Shown here one piece after another: positions 23,237 through 44,719 of a stretch of DNA of 64,000 nt. The first letter of the stretch is position 1. The number at the start of each line of letters is the position of its first letter. The position numbers and the translations under genes were made by a program. Origin of the DNA: Halanaerobiales bacterium (GTDB lineage Bacteria; Bacillota; Halanaerobiia; DY22613). The notes beneath the pieces were generated by a model, which worked only from the letters and a program-made list of their open reading frames with translations, was not told the origin of the DNA and did no database searches. The stretch is from NCBI GenBank assembly GCA_030627905.1, contig DAOVRZ010000016.1, positions 1,897 to 65,896 of the forward strand, read 5' to 3'.

Positions 23237-23268
23237 ATAATATTTTCGGAAGGAGATAGATCTCCTTC
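23237..23268. repeat. Solo end of the family-2 element
   Basis: aataatattttcggaaggagat shares ttcggaaggagat with 28394-28503. Forms the hairpin gaaggagat-ag-atctccttc. Confidence 0.5.
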
Positions 23269-28393: not shown

Positions 28394-28503
28394 TTAACAA
28401 CTTTCGGAAGGAGATTTCGCCCCTTCAAAGAAGTAGACTTTCTCTGAAGTTTATCCCTACTTACAGAAGTTTGGGGATTTATACCTTCCGGAAATGTTGT
28501 TAA
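28394..28503 (-). repeat. Family-2 MITE-like element, copy A
   Basis: Terminal inverted repeats ttaacaactttcggaagg / ccttccggaaatgttgttaa. Homologous, in reverse orientation, to 31933-32037. Confidence 0.8.
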
Positions 28504-28506
28504 AGC

Positions 28507-28536
28507 TTGACAAATCAAAGCTGGAAATGATATAAT
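28507..28536 (+). promoter_or_regulatory. Sigma-A-type promoter of the rpsF operon
   Basis: TTGACA (28507-28512), 18-nt spacer, TATAAT (28531-28536). Confidence 0.6.
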
Positions 28537-28616: not shown

Positions 28617-28904
28617 ATGAGAAAGTATGAAACTATTGCTATCATTAGCCCAGAATTAGATGAAGCTGCGATCACAGCAACTATTGATAAGATTAAAGAT
28701 ATTATTACTAACAATAGTGGTGAAGTAGTAAAGGTTGATAACTGGGGAACTAAGAGATTGGCATATGATGTGAAAAAGCATCGTTCTGGTTACTATACTT
28801 GCATTAATTTTAATGCAGTAAATGAAACAATTGACGAGTTGAACAGAAACTATCGTATTACGGATTCTGTAATTAAGTCTATTATTGTACGTCTAGACGA
28901 TTAA
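28617..28904 (+). CDS. rpsF: 30S ribosomal protein S6
   Basis: [16 protein letters not shown]... after GGAGGAGG. The ORF-track start at 28599 is probably too early. Confidence 0.95.
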
Positions 28905-28944: not shown

Positions 28945-29190
28945 GTGTTAAATAGAATAATATTGATTGGCCGTTTAACACGAGATCCAGAGTTGCGTTA
29001 TACCACAAATGGAACTGCAGTAGCTTCGTTTGCACTTGCGGTTGAGCGTCCTTTTGTGAACCAACAAAGTGGTCAACGTGATGCGGATTTTATTGATGTG
29101 GTTGTTTGGCGTAAAATGGCTGAGACTTGCGCAAATCATTTAGGCAAAGGACGTTTAGTTGCTGTTGAAGGCCGTTTACAAATCCGTTCT
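28945..29190 (+). CDS. ssb: Single-stranded DNA-binding protein, exon 1 (82 codons)
   Basis: [33 protein letters not shown]...[11 protein letters not shown] is an OB fold. The sequence diverges exactly where GTGCG begins. Confidence 0.9.
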
Positions 29191-31764
29191 GTGCGTCCGT
29201 ACGGGCGTTTAGTGAATCTACCTTTAGCAGGGTAGCAGGTTAGGTCGCATACTTGAAAATCTGTCATCAGCCGACTTATCCGTAAGGGAAACCAAGCGGG
29301 GAGTGTAGCATGTCGGTAAAGTCATAAGTTGGTTAGTCACTAAGCCACGACTGAATGGCGAGATGAAAAGTTACGAATGAGGATGAAAGCTAAACTGCTT
29401 GAATGATAGTCTGAGGGGGATTAGTTTGGCCTATGACGTAAAGTGGCTATAAACGTCATACAGTTCAGAATAATTTACATAAGAGCGGTGAATTATTCAA
29501 AAAGGATACAGGCCATAGGATCGAGTCTGTATCAGTGACCCTGAACTGCCCATCTTTAGTATAAAGAAAAAGGCAAAAGTCACATCCGACATCGTAATAA
29601 GCTGGTCACTAAACGTACTAAACGGAGATTACCTAAGTTGGATTGCCCAAAATGGGCTATGACTATAAGTAGTCTGAATATCTAATATGGTAACGGAGGT
29701 CTCGTAGTAGTCGGAGATAGGGAAAACCTATTACATGGCGAAGGGGAACAGTTTATCGGTTTAATACAAAATTGGGAAGGTGCGTGAGGCACTATGAGAA
29801 GTCCAAAAGTAGTATTAGACAATTTAGCTTCCAAGGCAAAGACCGTCAATTATAAATATCAACGACTATATAGAAACCTTTACAACATTGAACTCTACCT
29901 TGAAGCATATGCAAGAATATATGCTAACCAAGGCAACATGACACAAGGTACTGATGGGAACACTGTCGATGATATGAGTATTAATAGAATCCAAAGAATC
30001 ATTAATAAGTTAAAAAACCAAAGCTACCAACCTAATCCTGCAAGAAGGGTCTATATACCCAAGAAAAACGGTAGCCAAAGACCTTTAGGGATTCCATCTA
30101 TTGACGACAAACTAGTTCAGGAAATCGTTAGAAGGATTCTGGAAGCCATATATGAAAGCACGTTTTCCAATAAAACGCATGGATTCAGACCGAACAGAAG
30201 CTGTCATACAGCTTTAGAGGAAATTAGAACAACATATACGGGAATTAAATGGTGGCTGGAAGGAGATATTAAAGGCTTCTTTGACAACATTGACCATCAT
30301 ATTCTAATTAACATCCTCAGAAGGAGAATTGATGACGAAAAGTTCATTGATCTCATATGGAAGTTTCTTAAAGCTGGATACATGGAAGAATGGAAATTTC
30401 ATAACACCTATAGCGGTACACCACAAGGCGGCACCATAAGTCCAATTTTGTCGAATATCTATCTAAACGAATTGGATAAATATATGGAAGAATATAAGAA
30501 GAAATTCGATAAAGGAAAAACGAAACAGAGAAGCACAGCATATCGGACAGCCTGCCAAAGAACAGAAAGACTACGTGCGAAATATAAGAAGATATGGCAC
30601 AACTTAAGTGATGAGGAAAAACAACAAGCCATTAAAGAAGTTAAGAAGCTACAAAAGGAAGTGCAGAAACTCCCACGTACAGACCCGCAAGATGGGAGAT
30701 ACAAAAGGTTACAGTATACAAGGTATGCGGATGACTTCTTAATAGGTATTATAGGTAGTAAGGATGATGCTAGAAAGATTAAACAAGACCTTACAATCTT
30801 TCTTATGGATAATCTAAAGTTAGAGTTATCCCAAAGAAAAACCCTTATCACTAACAGTAGAAATAAAGCCAGATTCCTGGGTTACGACATACAGGTAGAT
30901 AGATCTAATAAACCGAAAGTAGCTACAGATGGAATACCAAGAAGAACTTTTAACTTAAAAGTTAGATTACTAATGCCAATGGAAAAATGGAGGGATAAGC
31001 TCCTACAACTCCAAGCAATGGAAATCGACAAGAATGATAAATGGATTCCTATGCATAGACGATATTTAGTCAACAATGATGACCTTGAAATAATCAGCAC
31101 TTATAATGCAGAAATTAGAGGGTTCTATAACTACTATAAACTAGCCCTGAATGTTAGCAATCTGAATAAATTTCATTATGTCATGAAGTTCAGTTTGCTG
31201 AAAACCTATGCCAATAAGTATAGATCAACAATCAAGAAAATGAAGAAAAAGTTTAACGTTGATGGTGAAATAGGAGTTCGATACCGAACAAAAGAAGAAG
31301 AGAAAATTCGCTTCTTTTATAATAAAGGGTATAAAATACAGAGGCTAGAGAAAAAAGCAAATGAAAATGTTGACAATTTGCCTAATATAACGATATATAG
31401 TGGCAGAACGAGTCTAATTGATAGACTACTAGCAGGTAAATGTGAATGGTGTGGTGTAGAGGATGTACCAATTCACATGCATCATGTTAGAAAGTTGAAG
31501 GACTTGCAAGGCAAAAAGCGATGGGAGCAATTAATGATTGGTAGAAAGCGTAAAACCCTTGCTTTATGTCAGTCATGTCACAAAGATTTGCATAATGGAA
31601 TGCTAGATTGATAAACGGAGAGCCGTATACGCTGAGAGGTGTACGTACGGTTCGGAGGGGAGTTCAGGAAAACCTACTTTAAGAAACCATGTTGAAACTC
31701 GTATAGAACATATGACTAGACGAGGGCGGTTGAATTAAGGAAAGGCGTCTGGTTCTTACCCTAC
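29191..31764 (+). mobile_element. Group II intron (2574 nt) with RT-maturase-HNH ORF
   Basis: 5' GTGCG. Domain V GAGCCGTATACGCTGAGAGGTGTACGTACGGTTC at 31620-31653. The 3' end is ...CCCTAC. The flanking exons join in frame. Confidence 0.9.
29794..31611 (+). CDS. ltrA: Group II intron reverse transcriptase/maturase with HNH endonuclease domain
   Basis: RT motifs (RPLGIPSIDDKLVQE, GTPQGGTISPILSNIYL, YTRYADDFLIG), X/thumb domain, and C-terminal CEWCG...HMHHV...CQSCHKDLH. Confidence 0.95.
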   Translation: MRSPKVVLDNLASKAKTVNYKYQRLYRNLYNIELYLEAYARIYANQGNMTQGTDGNTVDDMSINRIQRIINKLKNQSYQPNPARRVYIPKKNGSQRPLGIPSIDDKLVQEIVRRILEAIYESTFSNKTHGFRPNRSCHTALEEIRTTYTGIKWWLEGDIKGFFDNIDHHILINILRRRIDDEKFIDLIWKFLKAGYMEEWKFHNTYSGTPQGGTISPILSNIYLNELDKYMEEYKKKFDKGKTKQRSTAYRTACQRTERLRAKYKKIWHNLSDEEKQQAIKEVKKLQKEVQKLPRTDPQDGRYKRLQYTRYADDFLIGIIGSKDDARKIKQDLTIFLMDNLKLELSQRKTLITNSRNKARFLGYDIQVDRSNKPKVATDGIPRRTFNLKVRLLMPMEKWRDKLLQLQAMEIDKNDKWIPMHRRYLVNNDDLEIISTYNAEIRGFYNYYKLALNVSNLNKFHYVMKFSLLKTYANKYRSTIKKMKKKFNVDGEIGVRYRTKEEEKIRFFYNKGYKIQRLEKKANENVDNLPNITIYSGRTSLIDRLLAGKCEWCGVEDVPIHMHHVRKLKDLQGKKRWEQLMIGRKRKTLALCQSCHKDLHNGMLD

Positions 31765-31932
31765 TATGATGATAGCAATGGTATTCGTCGGAAAGTGGCA
31801 GAAGTTGTTGCTGATAATGTACGATTCCTAGATTGGCCAAAAGATGGTTCTTCTCAGAGTGGTAATAAGTCTAACAATCAGAATAATGATGATTTAGGTA
31901 GTTTCGGTGACGATATAGATGTTCCATTTTAA
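31765..31932 (+). CDS. ssb: Single-stranded DNA-binding protein, exon 2 (55 codons plus stop)
   Basis: YDDSNGIRRKVAEVVADNVRFLDWP...DDLGSFGDDIDVPF* has the acidic SSB C-terminal tip. Confidence 0.88.
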   Translation, partial: YDDSNGIRRKVAEVVADNVRFLDWPKDGSSQSGNKSNNQNNDDLGSFGDDIDVPF

Positions 31933-32037
31933 TAACATTTTCGGAAGGCATAAATCTCCCCAACTTTCGTAAGTGGGGGTAAACTATCTTTCTAGAATTA
32001 TATTTAGGTAGGAATTAAAATTCCTTCCGAAATGTTA
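31933..32037 (+). repeat. Family-2 MITE-like element, copy B
   Basis: TIRs taacattttcggaagg / ccttccgaaatgtta. Starts at the nucleotide after the ssb stop codon. Confidence 0.8.
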
Positions 32038-32102: not shown

Positions 32103-32333
32103 ATGGCACCTCGTGGTGGAAGAAAAGGTCGTAGAAAAGCTTGTGCTTTTTGTGTAGATAAAGTAAAAGATATTGACTATAAAGAGATTGGCCGTTTAAG
32201 AAGATATGTTACTGAACGTGGTAAAATTTTACCTCGTCGTATTTCTGGAAACTGTGCGAGTCATCAGCGTCAGTTGACTAGAGCGATTAAAAGAGCTCGT
32301 AATATTGCTTTGTTACCTTTTACAACTGAATAA
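32103..32333 (+). CDS. rpsR: 30S ribosomal protein S18
   Basis: 76-aa ORF with [42 protein letters not shown]. Confidence 0.96.
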
Positions 32334-32342
32334 TAAGAATTT

Positions 32343-32370
32343 AGGGGGCTAACTTTTTAGCCTCCTTTTT
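32343..32370 (+). terminator. Rho-independent terminator after rpsR
   Basis: agggggct aacttttt agcctcct followed by tttt. Confidence 0.7.
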
Positions 32371-39202: not shown

Positions 39203-40663
39203 ATGATGAATAAAAAATGTGAATTTTATCCAATTACAATTATAGGACATGGATGTGTTTATCCACCAGATGGATATGATAGTGAGAAATTTTAGAAAAA
39301 TGTTTTGTCGGGAAAATCAGGAATCAGTGAAATACCAAAAGAAATTTGGAATTGGGAATATTATTACGATGAAGATCGTAGTGCTTTAGATAAAACATAT
39401 TGTAAACTAAGTGGAATTATTGACAATTATCAGTTTCCATATGATAAATTTAATATTAAAGCTGAAGACATTGAATATTTCAATAGATGTAATTTAATGG
39501 TTTTAGATACAGTTTTACAGGCTTTTGCTTCTTCTGATATAGATCCAAAAGAAATTAACCTTGAAACGACAGCCTTCGCATTAGGAAATATGTTGGGAGA
39601 CGATTTTTTCCCTGAAACATCATTGAACTATCGGGCTAAAGAAGCATTTTATTATCTTCAACAAAGTGATGACTTTCAAAAGCTTGATAGTGAAGTTAAA
39701 AAAGAGATAGAGAAAAAGTTTTTTGAAGAGGTCGAAACTAAATTTGCAAAATTAGATGCTTCTAATTTTAAAACTGCTTCTAATAGTGCATTAGCTAAAA
39801 ATGTAACTGATTTTTTGGGAATTAAAGGTGAAGTTCAAATAATTGACGGAGCTTGTTCAGCGGGTGCTCTAGTAATAAATGAAATGATTAAGGTTTTACA
39901 TGATAAAACCTGTGATGTTGTCATAGCTTCAGCAGTTTTAGGTAGTTTGAATGTAACTGGTAATTTGAGTTTTGCTAAGATTGGTGGTATTTCTGGTACT
40001 CACAGTGCACCATTAGATATTTCAGCAAATGGTTTAATTCCAGGAGAAGGTGTTGGAACAATAATTTTGAAGCGTCTTGATGATGCTATTAGAGATAATG
40101 ATAGAATTTTTGGTGTTATTTGTGGAAGTGGAGTTTCTAGTGATGGTAAAGGAAAGGCTATCTATGCTCCAAGTTCTGAGGGACAAGCCAGATGTATTAA
40201 AGAGTCTTTAAATAGAGTTGGATTGAAACCAGTAGATATTGATTACTTTGAAGCTCATGCTACTGCAACACCTGTAGGAGATGCGGTAGAACTCAATACA
40301 TTAAAAAGCATATTTGAAGGTGAAGATTTTCGTAAAAATTCTGTAGCTATCAGTTCTGTTAAATCACAAATTGGGCATACATTTTCAGCTGCAGGTATGG
40401 CTAATTTGATAAAAGTTCTAAAAGCCTTTGAGAATGATCTGATGCCACCTATTCATAATTTTACAGAACCAAATCCTAAAATGAATCTTGAAAACTCACC
40501 ATTTTATGTGAACAAAGAAGCTAAAAAATGGGATAAAAAACCAAATAATACACCAAGAAGATGTAGTGTTAATGCGTTTGGCTTTGGTGGTGTAAATGCT
40601 AATATTGTTGTAGAAGAGTATTTAGAAGAATATCATAAAGAATTGGTAGAAAAACTGGAATAA
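39203..40663 (+). pseudogene. Type I PKS ketosynthase domain gene with in-frame TAG at 39293-39295
   Basis: MMNKKCEFYPITIIGHGCVYPPDGYDSEKF*KNVLSGKSGISEIP: the stop replaces the conserved Trp of the KS FW..l..G motif. The rest is intact: DGACSAG (Cys), EAHATATPVGD, KSQIGH. Confidence 0.75.
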
Positions 40664-41299
40664 TTATCAAGTGATGTTAAACAGGAAGATACTGAGATTG
40701 CAATTGTAGGTGTGGGTTGTATTAACGGTAGAGCAAATAATGTAGAAGAATATTGGAATACAATTAATCAATCTAACAAACTTTTTAGTACTTTTCCCGA
40801 GGGACGCTGGAATGAAGATGTAAATAAAATATTCTCGGATGCATTTAATGAAAAAGAAGTTTTGGGAAGTTTTATTGAGAATTTTGAATTTCCCTGGATG
40901 AAGTTTAGGATTCCGCCTAATGTTTTGGGACAGATTGACAATGGACAATTAATGGCAGCTGATGAAGCTATTGATGATTATGGTAAAGATAAATTGGTAC
41001 CTGCTAGAACGGCTGTATATGTTGGTGGTATGCAAGGTATGGAATCTAGTATTTTGGCTAATCTACGTATTCGTCAAGAAGAGTATGTTCAAATTTTGAA
41101 GAATATGCCTGAATTTAAGAATTTAGATTCTAAGACACAGGAGTCAATAATCTCAGATCTACAGAGTCAAATTCGTCAGTATATACCTAAGATAGAAGAA
41201 GATACATTGCCTGGTTTTATGGATAATATTGTTGCTGGAAGAATTGCTAATTATTTTAATGTGCATGGAGTAAATATGTTTATAGATTCTTCTTTGTGA
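40664..41299 (+). pseudogene. Second KS-like (CLF-like) domain, N-terminal ~210 codons only
   Basis: In the same frame as the upstream KS, separated only by TAA (40661-40663). EIAIVGVGCINGRANNVEEYW is a KS N-terminal motif. Ends FIDSSL* at the active-site position. Confidence 0.7.
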
Positions 41300-44108
41300 G
41301 AGTATAGGAATTAAAGCTGATCTTTATTTAGGTCATAGTCTTGGTGAAATTCCAGCTTTAGCAGCTAGTGGAGTGTTATCATTTGAAGACGGATTTCGGA
41401 CTACATATTATCGTGCCATGGCATTGAACCAAATTGAAGGAAAAAAACGTGGTGGTATGATTAGTATTTCTACTACTCAGGATGATCCTGTTCTGCGAAA
41501 AGTATTTGCTGGTGTATCTGATTATTATACAATTAGTCTGGTAAATGCTCCAGATCAAATAGTTGTTTCTGGTGATTTAAAAGCTATTAGAGAAATTGAA
41601 AAGCATTGCGAGGAAGAAAAAATTGGAGGTCGTGTTTTACCTGTGTCTCATGCTTTTCATTCTGAATTGTTAAGACCAGCACTTGCATATTTTGAAGAGA
41701 AGCTTAAATTAAATACTTGGAATGCTCCTAAAGTTTCAGTATTATCAACTATAAATGGTCAGATTTATGATAAGGACTTTATCCTTTCTGGTAAGATGCC
41801 AGCTTTTCTAGCCAGTCAATTAGTTACGCCATTTAGTTTTATGGATACTATAAAAAAGATCTTTAAAGATTTTAAGATCCGTATTTATATTGAAGTGGGT
41901 CCAAGAGATATCCTGACCAAATTGGTTAAGAAAATTTTAGATGATGAAGAGATTATTAGTATTTGTTCAAATAAGCCTTCTTTAGGAGATTTGGTTTCCT
42001 TTGATAGATTAAAAGCATATTTAAAGGTTCATAAAGTTATTATGAAAGGGAGAGAAGATATGAGCAGTATTATTTCAGTTAAAACAGATGCAGATCTTTT
42101 GAAAGATGAACTATTACGTATCGCCAATAGATATACTGGTTATCCTCATTCAGTTATTGATTTTGATAAAACCTTGCATATGGGTTTGGCAATTAATAGT
42201 TTTACATTGTCAGATATTGTTTCACATATTCGAAAAGAATATGAATTATCAGAAGATGAATTAAGCAATGTAAAAGAGATTACTTTAAGGGAAATTTTTG
42301 AAATAATTACAGAGAAAAAAGGTATTTCTATTGAAGTAGCTCCTGCATTAGAATCTAAAAAAGTAGAGGCAAATATAAGCCATGATGAAGTATCAGAAAC
42401 AGTATATGAGATAATTCAGGCAAAGACAGGCTATCCAGCAGATATGTTGGAAGGAGATTTTGATTTAGAAGCAGATTTAGGGATAGACTCAGTAAAACAA
42501 GCAGAAATTATTGGTCAGGTACGTGAAAAGTATGTATTTGAACAGCGTGAAGATATCAATATTAAAGATTTAAATACAATTAACAAGATTATAGAATTTA
42601 CCATGGGACAGGTTAATAACAATGTTGAGAGGGAGACTTCTTTTATTGAGAAGGAAAAACTTGATCCCAAAAAAGTGATAGAAGAGCTTTATACTGGTGA
42701 GGATAAAACTTTAAGGTATGTATCAGTAACCATGGAGAAAGTTTATGACGAAACTAAAGGGAAACCATTTAAGTTAGAAGGTAAAAACTTTGTCATTGTA
42801 GAAGACCAGCTAGATGGTAATTTAACTAAAGAATTAGTAAAACTTTTACAAGAGAAAAATGTTAAGGTATGCGTTGTTGCCGATAGTTCTAATACTTATG
42901 AAGTACCTACAGTTCAGATTAACTGGTCAGATGATGGCGAAATTGGTTCTGGTTTATTGAGAACATTCCAGGAAGCTAAGAATATCTTGAATGTGGTTCA
43001 TGGTATGATTAACTTATATTCTTTAAAAGAAATCTCTATGAGTAAACTTACACCAGAGGAATGGAGTATTGAAACGGAAAAGAATTTCCGGGTTCAATTC
43101 TTTGCAAGTAAGGTATTTTATTCTGATTGGGAAAAATCAGAACTTGAGTGTGGATGTTTTGGAGCAACCAATATTGGTGGAGTTTTTGGACTTGAAAGTT
43201 CTACAAGTGATAACCCTATGGGTGCTTTGCTGGCTGGATTTTTTAAGAGCCTTCAAAAAGAACTAGATGTAACTGCAAAAATTGTTGATTTTACGATATT
43301 GGATTCTCCAGCAGATGTTGCAAAAATACTGATAAAAGAGTTTAGTTTGAATGAGAATTTAATTGAGATTGGATACACAGAAAGAAGAAGAAAGACGATT
43401 CAGGTAATCCCTAAGAAATTAGATATTAAGGAACAATCTAAGGCTCTTGATATTGATGATAACAGTGTAATCATCGTATCGGGTGGGGGTAGGGGTATTA
43501 TTTATGAATGTGTTAAAGGATTAGCAAAATTGCATAATCCACATATTATTATAACAGGTCGTACTTCTATCCCTACTTGGGATGAAGATTGGATTAAGAT
43601 GAGTGAAGAGGAATTTGTTCAGTACAGAATTGAATTTCTTAAGAAAATGAAAAGAGAAAATCCAAAGGCAACACCGATTTTAATTGAAAGAGAATATGTT
43701 AAACTAGCTCGTGCAAGAAAACTGTATTCTAACTTATATGACTTGCAACAGCAAAATTATAAAGTTTCTTATGTTGCGTGTGATGTTGCAGATAGAGAAG
43801 CAGTAAAAATATTGATTAAGGATATCAAGAAAAAGTACGGAAAAATAGATGGTATTGTTCATGGAGCAGGTTTAGAATCTTTTGGATCTATACCTAAAAA
43901 ACCAGTTCAACACACTTTAAATGTTGTTAGAGTGAAAGTTAACGGAATGTATAACTTATATAATGAGATTAAAGATGACTCTATCAAATTTTTTATAAAC
44001 TTTGGTTCTATATCAGGACGTTTTGGAATGGATGGACTGCATGGGGAGAAGTTGGAATGGCTGCAATTGAAGATGTCCGCCGTGTTCAGGAAGGGCAACG
44101 TGGTCTAA
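41286..44108 (+). pseudogene. PKS fragment: AT (C-terminal part from GHSLGE)-ACP-like-ACP-KR
   Basis: GIKADLYLGHSLGE, VSHAFHS (AT). HMGLAINSF (degenerate ACP). DLEADLGIDSVKQAEI (ACP). VSGGGRGIIYE...CDVADRE...IVHGAGL...GSISGRFG (KR). The frame is lost after GRFGMDG. Confidence 0.75.
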
Positions 44109-44719
44109 CTTATTTGAGTGTAGCTGAAGGTGTTCAGAAATTTATGAGAGAACTAATTTTTGATGCTGGATGTCCAGAAGTATTAATTTTCGGTAGTTTA
44201 GGTACAAATAGTCCACTAGGCCAACTTGATTTTTTAGATCAAGAGAGAAAAGAAGTTGTTGCAATCTATAAGGAAGATGGAATGATCAGTGATCGTACGA
44301 GAAATAATTTGCTTGAAAGGGTAACCAAATTCGAAGAAGGTAAATCTATGATAGTAACGAATGAAATTCATTTAGATGAGGATCTTTTCTTGTTAGATCA
44401 TAGGGTAGATGGAGACTATGTATATCCTGGAGTATTACATGTGGAAACTTTCCTACAACTTGCTAGAACTATGGTGGAAAAAATAGGGAATAAATTACCT
44501 TTAACAAAACTATATGACGTTAATTTCATGAAATTTATTAAACATTTTGAAAAAAATCCACTAATTCTTAGAGCGATTGGTACTTATGAGAAGATAACTC
44601 CTACAGAAATTGAAATTAGCACAAAATTAAAGTCAGATTTCACTAACTCAAAAGGTGTAGTTTTAGAAAAGATAGAGTACACTCAAATGGTAGAGTTCTT
44701 TTCAGTACAGAGAAAGTAG
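44039..44719 (+). pseudogene. PKS fragment: KR C-terminal end plus first half of the DH hot-dog
   Basis: AWGEVGMAAIE (KR tail), then LLDHRVDGDYVYPGV (DH HxxxGxxxxP motif). Different frame from the upstream KR. Confidence 0.7.

Follow-up and report, generated by a model that had tools for sequence, protein, structure and literature searches.

The single-stranded DNA-binding protein gene ssb of a Halanaerobiales bacterium (the NCBI organism name of the source) is split by a group II intron that belongs to a lineage occupying the same ssb codon junction in distant Bacillota. The gene lies within a predicted rpsF-ssb-rpsR operon on the 64-kb stretch of DNA analyzed here (the window), taken from a metagenome-assembled genome (MAG), and the intron has an open reading frame (ORF) for a reverse transcriptase (RT). 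In 7/7 of the relatives tested whose intron-encoded protein (IEP) is at least 63% identical to that of the window, ssb is interrupted at the same junction, with R-(S/N) on one side and Y on the other (site A). We think it very likely that the window intron is an intact element, combining a IIA-type ribozyme with an IEP of the mitochondrial-like (ML) class, and that it resides at the natural homing site of its lineage. The interrupted gene is laid out as follows.

28945-29190, + strand: ssb exon 1, 246 nt or 82 codons (a multiple of three)
29191-31764, + strand: group II intron, ML/IIA type, 2574 nt, GUGCG...CCCUAC
29779-29793, + strand: DIVa-like hairpin directly before the IEP start codon, a conserved helix (alignment columns 663-677)
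29794-31611, + strand: IEP, 605 aa, with reverse transcriptase, maturase X, D region and HNH endonuclease; YADD intact
31620-31653, + strand: domain V, matched by RF00029 and folding with a bulge
31656-31762, + strand: domain VI, with a long distal extension; the branch-point A, 7 nt from the 3' splice site, bulges out at 31758
31765-31932, + strand: ssb exon 2, 55 codons plus stop, encoding the final strand of the OB fold and, beyond a linker, the acidic tail DDIDVPF

Past 29190 the DNA continues as GTGCG and the ssb frame ends after 14 read-through codons; right after ...CCCTAC (31764) the frame resumes as YDDSNGIRRKVAEVVADNVRFLDWP...DDIDVPF and a stop codon, ending at 31932. Joining 29190 to 31765 yields a 137-aa SSB that matches Pfam SSB (PF00436) without a break over positions 1-104 of 104 (E 2e-34). 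The OB-fold and the acidic tail ending D-(I/L)-PF, which aligns with the tails of orthologues, are complete only once the intron is removed in silico, and the unspliced message would encode a tail-less 96-aa fragment. Aligned with 12 uninterrupted orthologues, the spliced SSB has no indel at the junction, the two residues flanking it (S82 and Y83) are invariant, and both exons retain every residue that is invariant among the orthologues. Compared with the closest intron-less allele, exon 1 has a ratio of nonsynonymous to synonymous substitution (dN/dS) of 0.034 and exon 2 one of 0.098 (dS 0.7), pairwise values that also cover time before the insertion and that, at the level of sequence, place both exons under purifying selection.

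The intron itself has the conserved ends of its kind, GUGCG at 29191-29195 (consensus GUGYG) and a 3' AY in ...CCCUAC at 31764. The Rfam model RF00029, which represents domains V and VI, matches 31618-31764 with 62.6 bits (gathering score 40) across model positions 1-77 of 77, and the match terminates exactly at the proposed 3' splice site. Domain VI bears a distal extension of ~50-60 nt (31664-31745) that is also found in related introns (L049, L053, L058, L061, L143, L144 and L007); introns of the ssb clade have an Rfam domain V-domain VI span of 140-159 nt, and the other relatives scanned one of 68-99 nt, except L007 (154 nt). For the 5' part of the ribozyme, RNAalifold applied to the first 600 nt of nine related introns gave a consensus of 138 pairs. 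Compensatory changes are seen in 78 of these, and the fold resolves the helix that closes domain I, domain II, domain III and DIVa. The DIVa-like hairpin before the IEP start codon is, by analogy with Ll.LtrB, a putative IEP-binding or autoregulation site.

The IEP contains the Pfam domains RVT_1, Intron_maturas2 and an AI2M-like HNH. Its best match among solved structures is LtrA, the protein of the intron Ll.LtrB (E 2e-155, colinear over residues 6-599), and both YADD and the C-terminal Cys/His endonuclease motifs align with LtrA; for the class C and chloroplast-like (CL) group II RTs of the PDB, the match is confined to the RT part, at ~1e-44. Relative to its relatives the IEP has a dN of ~0.2, with dS saturated. 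By its sequence, then, the intron is of the ML class with a IIA-type ribozyme, like Ll.LtrB, an assignment made from the LtrA match and the domains. ML proteins pair with IIA ribozymes (PMC4424553), and as in IIA introns the 3' exon is paired by delta bases beside exon-binding site 1 (EBS1) and not by the separate EBS3 of IIB/IIC. Intact RT and HNH motifs, a site shared by seven independent genomes or contigs, and the existence of intron-less alleles (L044, L045 and L051) suggest that the window intron is competent for retrohoming.

An earlier, sequence-only reading of this DNA had already proposed the two intron boundaries, a joined 137-aa SSB colinear with Bacillus SsbA, the 605-aa RT/maturase/HNH frame, domain V at 31620-31653, the splitting of ssb within rpsF-ssb-rpsR, and the fragment made from unspliced mRNA. 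All of these were borne out by the profile matches and orthologue comparisons described above. The same reading had treated the case as one of the rare insertions into housekeeping genes; the comparison with relatives indicates that the position is not accidental. The nearest IEP relatives are 63-69% identical to the window IEP, and for the seven whose genomic context was looked up the junctions and spliced products were computed, placing each insertion exactly at site A.

P0001 (L049/L050): rpsF-ssb-rpsR, site A
P0003 (L058/L059): ychF-rpsF-ssb-rpsR, site A
P0004 (L204): inside ssb, site A
P0005 (several Aneurinibacillus aneurinilyticus isolates, L053-55, including GCA_000466385.1): rpsF-ssb-rpsR, site A
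P0007 (complete Bacillus cereus chromosome, L061): tail-less ssb paralogue away from rpsF, site A
P0008 (Bacillus alkalicellulosilyticus, L143): ssb outside the operon, site A
P0009 (19 metagenome contigs, L144-148 among them): rpsF-ssb-rpsR, site A

A neighbor-joining tree of 21 IEPs contains seven site-A sequences, which group as a single clade (bootstrap 96/100) with the window IEP nested inside it. The edge of this clade is sharp: P0012, at 61% identity, lies in a cell-wall hydrolase gene, and at 42-59% identity the relatives are found in relaxase, coupling-protein-like and lytic-transglycosylase-like genes, which they interrupt and which are the usual habitat of ML introns. By these comparisons the intron lineage is dedicated to one conserved ssb codon junction, with a site fidelity specific to the clade. 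The same site is probably occupied in distant Bacillota because the target DNA encodes a conserved OB-fold motif, (L/I)Q-x-R-(S/N)-Y-(D/E), with the insertion point between (S/N) and Y. Since the operon copy is interrupted in cultured Aneurinibacillus strains, splicing in vivo can be argued for within the lineage.

Two observations were made in passing on these relatives. L204 holds two tandem LtrA-like introns (123-2050 and 2411-~4960), the second of which is the one at site A inside ssb; the first ends ~90 nt before the ssb start, and its 3' exon begins TATGAAGA, just as the 3' exon of site A does. This may be a duplicated target fragment. Contigs of nearly intron length occur in isolate assemblies, namely the 2.6-kb contigs L056 and L057 of Aneurinibacillus and a 2568-nt contig of P0002 (Paenibacillus zanthoxyli). 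This suggests a multi-copy repeat that breaks the assembly, for instance copies in more than one ssb paralogue.

Alleles of ssb without the intron confirm the insertion site, a comparison that the sequence-only reading had proposed and that the sequences of L044, L045 and L051 supplied. Such alleles run straight through the insertion point, as ...CAAA(T/C)(C/T)CG(T/A)TCT followed directly by TATGATGATAG.... Related MAGs share the DUF951-ychF-rpsF-ssb-rpsR-MazG-like...rplI-lon-like neighborhood with an uninterrupted ssb, and their SSB proteins are 79% identical to that of the window (L045-L048) or 84% over an aligned 80% (L051). The closest SSB (92%) is encoded on the short contig L044 (1-5327), where ssb is not in an rpsF operon and is accompanied by small unannotated ORFs and a DUF6011 gene, a context that looks like phage or other mobile DNA. 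L044 has the homing site without the intron, identical to that of the window from -12 to +12.

How the intron would recognize this site can be read from the pairing of its domain I loops with intron-binding sites (IBS) in the exons. Two adjacent hairpins, hp1 and hp2, each carry an EBS1-like loop preceded by delta bases.

29179-29183, + strand: IBS2 CAAAT, in ssb exon 1
29184-29190, + strand: IBS1 CCGTTCT, the last 7 nt of exon 1
29424-29428, + strand: EBS2 GUUUG, which pairs with CAAAT at -12 to -8 of the exon, one pair being G-U
29478-29488, + strand: hp1 loop, delta CAUA (29478-29481) and EBS1-like AGAGCGG (29482-29488), the loop confirmed by folding
29514-29523, + strand: hp2 loop, delta CAUA and GGAUCG (29518-23), 35 nt downstream of hp1
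31765-31768, + strand: delta' TATG, the start of exon 2

A plain complement search for EBS2 was ambiguous and was replaced by comparative alignment, which settled on 29424-28; at the aligned position in relatives EBS2 co-varies with the exon (ACUUG:CAAGU, AUUUG:CAAAU, GUUUG:CAGAC and GUUUG:CAAAC). The hp1 loop forms 11 contiguous pairs with CCGUUCU and the UAUG that follows it in the joined exons, comprising AGAGCGG:CCGUUCU with one G-U and four delta-delta' pairs. The hp2 loop forms 5/6 pairs with the window exon, having a U opposite U at -4, and would form 6/6 with a CGATCT allele, which is present in L045. Across nine introns, hp2 makes a mean of 5.7/6 pairs with its own exon versus 2.8 with the exons of other introns, and hp1 makes 4.6 versus 2.75; in a fixed-window permutation of 12 introns with four target kinds, the observed value was reached in 0/5000 permutations for hp2 and 46/5000 for hp1. 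On these averages and this test, hp2 is the main EBS1 of the lineage and hp1 also tracks the target, although hp1 is the better exon match in the window intron and in L049. The delta CAUA directly 5' of both loops pairs with the exon-2 UAUG, and two to four such pairs can be formed in all site-A relatives. Taken together, the aligned sequences show EBS2, EBS1 and delta co-varying with the host exons across relatives. The sequence-only reading had placed EBS1 in the loop at 29482-29488; its pairing with CCGTTCT, with one G-U, stands, but that account was incomplete, as hp2 follows the exon across the lineage and EBS2 and delta had been missed. A generic scan for two exon-complementary 6-mers in 97 introns did not discriminate (64/97 for the own exon against 985/1913 controls) and was discarded. 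The possibility that hp1 is an alpha' element pairing within the intron, suggested by the structure of IIA introns, was also considered.

In six of the seven site-A introns, hp1 and hp2 differ opposite exon position -4, one carrying a G, which pairs with C or U, and the other a U, which pairs with A or G. Position -4 is a synonymous third base of an Arg, Ser or Gly codon, and which of the two hairpins carries the G or the U varies between sister introns. One may speculate that the ssb-homing lineage and its sister clades possess a duplicated target-recognition hairpin, both loops of which evolve with the target and together act as a dual guide covering every synonymous codon variant. We offer this idea tentatively and hold it to be rather doubtful; the arrangement may instead be merely a duplicated hairpin.

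The host gene is the middle member of a predicted transcription unit with the following elements.

28507-28536, + strand: sigma-70-type promoter-like site upstream of rpsF, TTGACA, an 18-nt spacer with TG, and TATAAT; 12/12 consensus matches
28617-28904, + strand: rpsF (ribosomal protein S6), Pfam Ribosomal_S6, E 2e-32, profile positions 1-90 of 90
31939-32032: MITE-like element between ssb and rpsR, bounded by terminal inverted repeats; part of the operon anatomy, not of the intron
32103-32333, + strand: rpsR (ribosomal protein S18), with its own GGAGGG Shine-Dalgarno 9 nt before the ATG
32343-32366, + strand: hairpin with a T run behind it, resembling an intrinsic terminator, downstream of rpsR

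The three genes are adjacent on one strand and are bracketed by one promoter-like and one terminator-like site; the former is a putative promoter, identified as a consensus match only, and no other plus-strand terminator-like site was found between it and the hairpin at 32343-66. The same synteny with an uninterrupted ssb occurs in the related MAGs L045 and L051. Gene order, signals and synteny thus predict co-transcription of rpsF-ssb-rpsR as an operon. The sequence-only reading had made expression of rpsR depend on splicing, which is too strong: rpsR has its own GGAGGG ribosome-binding site, so its translation would be independent of splicing. The rpsR sequence would stay on the transcript with or without splicing, and its expression would require transcription to run through the 2.6-kb intron and the RNA to survive over that length.

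The spacer between ssb and rpsR is ~170 nt in the window versus ~20 nt in relatives, a difference accounted for by the element resembling a miniature inverted-repeat transposable element (MITE). Copies of this ~92-nt element lie at 28402-28493, just upstream of the rpsF promoter, and at 31939-32032 in the opposite orientation, with a half-site at 23244-23253; the terminal inverted repeats read TTTCGGAAGG...CCTTCCGRAA, and their paired pattern was observed 3 times against 0 expected. Downstream of the operon, at 39305-44719, are genes with Pfam labels of ketoacyl-synthase, acyltransferase/ketoreductase and phosphopantetheinyl-transferase-like proteins, a cluster that looks like a polyketide or polyunsaturated-fatty-acid synthase.

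From this anatomy we propose a mechanism wherein transcription of rpsF-ssb-rpsR would start at the promoter preceding rpsF, cross the intron and stop at the terminator that follows rpsR. The IEP, made from its own start in domain IV, would bind the intron and promote lariat splicing with A31758 as the branch point. EBS2 (29424-28), together with an EBS1 loop (hp1 at 29482-88 and/or hp2 at 29518-23), would hold the 5' exon, the delta bases beside EBS1 would hold the first exon-2 bases, and ligation of the exons would restore the 137-aa SSB. The excised intron-protein particle could then reverse-splice into intron-less ssb alleles.

Several points weigh against this account. The anatomy, the exact in-frame junction and a conserved ribozyme fold with covariation are seen in the DNA, whereas splicing and retrohoming are predicted from it. 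A covariance-model scan, as proposed in the sequence-only reading, succeeded for domains V/VI (RF00029, 62.6 bits) and failed for domains I-IV, the Rfam D1-D4 families having no match to the intron even at E <=1; the domain I-III fold therefore rests on a comparative alignment of closely related introns. The dN/dS values, as noted, reach back before the insertion. The loop that is consistent across the lineage, hp2, has a U-U mismatch with the window exon, and hp1 and/or hp2 may serve as EBS1 here. Finally, the source is a MAG of which one contig was read, and a second intact ssb elsewhere is possible: for the named relative Anoxybacter fermentans, the database lists two SSB proteins. No second ssb or second intron copy was found within the 64-kb window. 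That the cell relies on the interrupted copy, as the sequence-only reading held in calling ssb essential and SSB supply dependent on splicing, is an inference.

Some of these points would fit a decaying insertion, in which the intron splices poorly and the ssb copy is dispensable or becoming a pseudogene, with another ssb supplying the protein. The search covered one contig rather than a whole genome, many Bacillota, A. fermentans included, carry two or more ssb genes, the B. cereus intron lies in a tail-less paralogue outside the rpsF operon, and hp2, the loop consistent across the lineage, is mismatched with the window exon. However, the invariant residues are kept in both exons at a dN/dS of 0.03-0.10, the IEP reading frame and its catalytic motifs are intact, compensatory changes maintain the ribozyme helices, hp1 pairs perfectly with the window exon, and the operon copy is interrupted in at least four other lineages, cultured isolates among them, all of which makes decay unlikely. 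We give no greater weight to the idea that the intron was co-opted by the host, such that splicing efficiency, responding to stress or to IEP level, sets the SSB dosage and the benefit retains the intron. Stable retention at one site of the operon copy across several genera and the clade-specific domain VI extension would be in line with regulation, and a similar idea has been raised for the Geobacillus recA intron (PMC2504315). Yet all mobility domains (RT, D and endonuclease) are conserved, as expected of an active retroelement, intron-less alleles are common in close relatives, and the presence of contigs of intron size in some assemblies points to several copies per genome. By far the least probable explanation is a mis-assembly of the metagenome that joined the intron to ssb. 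The source is a MAG, and the three assemblies with this gene order (MAG GCA_023128035.1, an ENA assembly and a Logan assembly) apparently come from one sample, but three different assemblers produced identical junctions, the exons join in frame, exact to the nucleotide, to give back a conserved protein, the EBS sequences fit these particular exons, and the same arrangement occurs in isolate genomes and a complete chromosome. We therefore favor, with considerable confidence, a complete intron at 29191-31764 that is probably competent for splicing and mobility.

Introns of the same broad kind have reached ssb at other positions. LtrA-like introns interrupt ssb of Metaplanococcus flavidus (L007, 4419-6975) ten codons downstream of site A, between GKRV and YTTEV, and ssb of a metagenome contig (L072, 889-~3405) between CANY and LKKG. 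Because the L007 and L072 introns fall on separate branches of the IEP tree and at other codons, ssb has been colonized several times independently. In Proteus alimentorum (L030:4338-4345) and Providencia stuartii (L031:4336-4343), an LtrA-like intron stands directly after the ssb stop (...DDDIPF, then TGA followed by GTGCG); the IEPs of these introns are 41-42% identical to the window IEP, and their site uses the conserved tail-coding DNA. A scan of metagenomes with an alignment of the clade returned relatives of 59% identity at most, one of which (L072) is in ssb at a different site. A phage or plasmid vehicle for the ssb clade was considered and rejected: the best phage IEP is 58% identical (in uvrX), the best plasmid IEP 60.5%, and 0/54 relatives on viral contigs have an ssb flank. 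The phage case is an LtrA-like intron in the SPbeta-like Bacillus phage BUCT083 (L062; ON107264.1, ~85.3-87.8 kb) that splits uvrX, a Y-family polymerase gene; the record labels the uvrX halves 'UV damage repair protein' and 'DNA polymerase', and the intron has two exon-matching loops.

Among known systems, the window intron resembles Ll.LtrB of Lactococcus lactis (ML, IIA) in the full-length colinearity with LtrA, the GUGCG 5' end, the sequence type of domain V, the hairpin at the IEP start, and the recognition of exons by EBS2 at -12 to -8, EBS1 at -6/-7 to -1 and delta directly 5' of EBS1. More distant relatives of the window intron also sit in relaxase genes, as Ll.LtrB does. Unlike Ll.LtrB, the window intron targets a chromosomal housekeeping gene and not a plasmid relaxase gene, its domain VI is ~50-60 nt longer, and it has two adjacent EBS1-like hairpins; Ll.LtrB has a single EBS1 hairpin at the corresponding place. 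Group I introns, inteins and homing endonucleases likewise occupy conserved sites of DNA-metabolism genes (a contrast drawn in PMC2504315). These elements share the strategy of a target kept constant by selection on an essential protein, so that many hosts offer targets without the element and its imprecise loss is lethal. The window intron differs from them in relying on RNA base pairing and reverse transcription instead of a protein endonuclease with DNA repair.

An intron in the groEL operon of Azotobacter vinelandii is reportedly placed at the groEL stop codon, and in that position it would resemble the Proteus and Providencia introns right after the ssb stop. The groEL intron (Adamidi et al. 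2003, cited in PMC4424553) would differ from the window intron, which is inside a coding region so that the protein requires splicing. A further parallel comes from Geobacillus kaustophilus, whose recA contains a group II intron (Chee & Takami 2005, cited in PMC2504315 and PMC4424553) that, according to the citing papers, has an RT ORF and lies in a conserved DNA-metabolism housekeeping gene of a member of the Bacillota whose function needs splicing. Judged by those accounts, the window intron differs in its host gene and in occupying the same site across Bacillus and Aneurinibacillus (Bacillales) and Halanaerobiales. Bacterial group II introns avoid or are rare in housekeeping genes, with recA, the groEL operon and some cyanobacterial genes among the few exceptions cited (PMC4424553, PMC6003770, PMC2504315). 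The IEPs of the lineage are already annotated as RT/maturase in public records, and no description of an ssb group II intron was found in the searchable literature, a scope apart from the curated intron databases. What this analysis adds is that the whole lineage keeps to a single ssb site in different orders of Bacillota, and that it carries twin EBS1-like loops.

These findings describe a whole ML/IIA lineage dedicated to one ssb codon junction, usually in the operon copy, in at least two orders of Bacillota. The cultured carriers, Aneurinibacillus aneurinilyticus and the B. cereus strain with its paralogue insertion, provide a tractable natural system in which to ask what splicing efficiency is required inside a normally essential gene, what the intron costs the host operon, and how RNA-guided targeting of a protein-constrained sequence permits spread across hosts. 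A dual guide, if true, would make homing easier into the ssb alleles of hosts as distant as Bacillales and Halanaerobiales, and the twin EBS1 loops, should they prove functional, would also bear on the design of targetrons.

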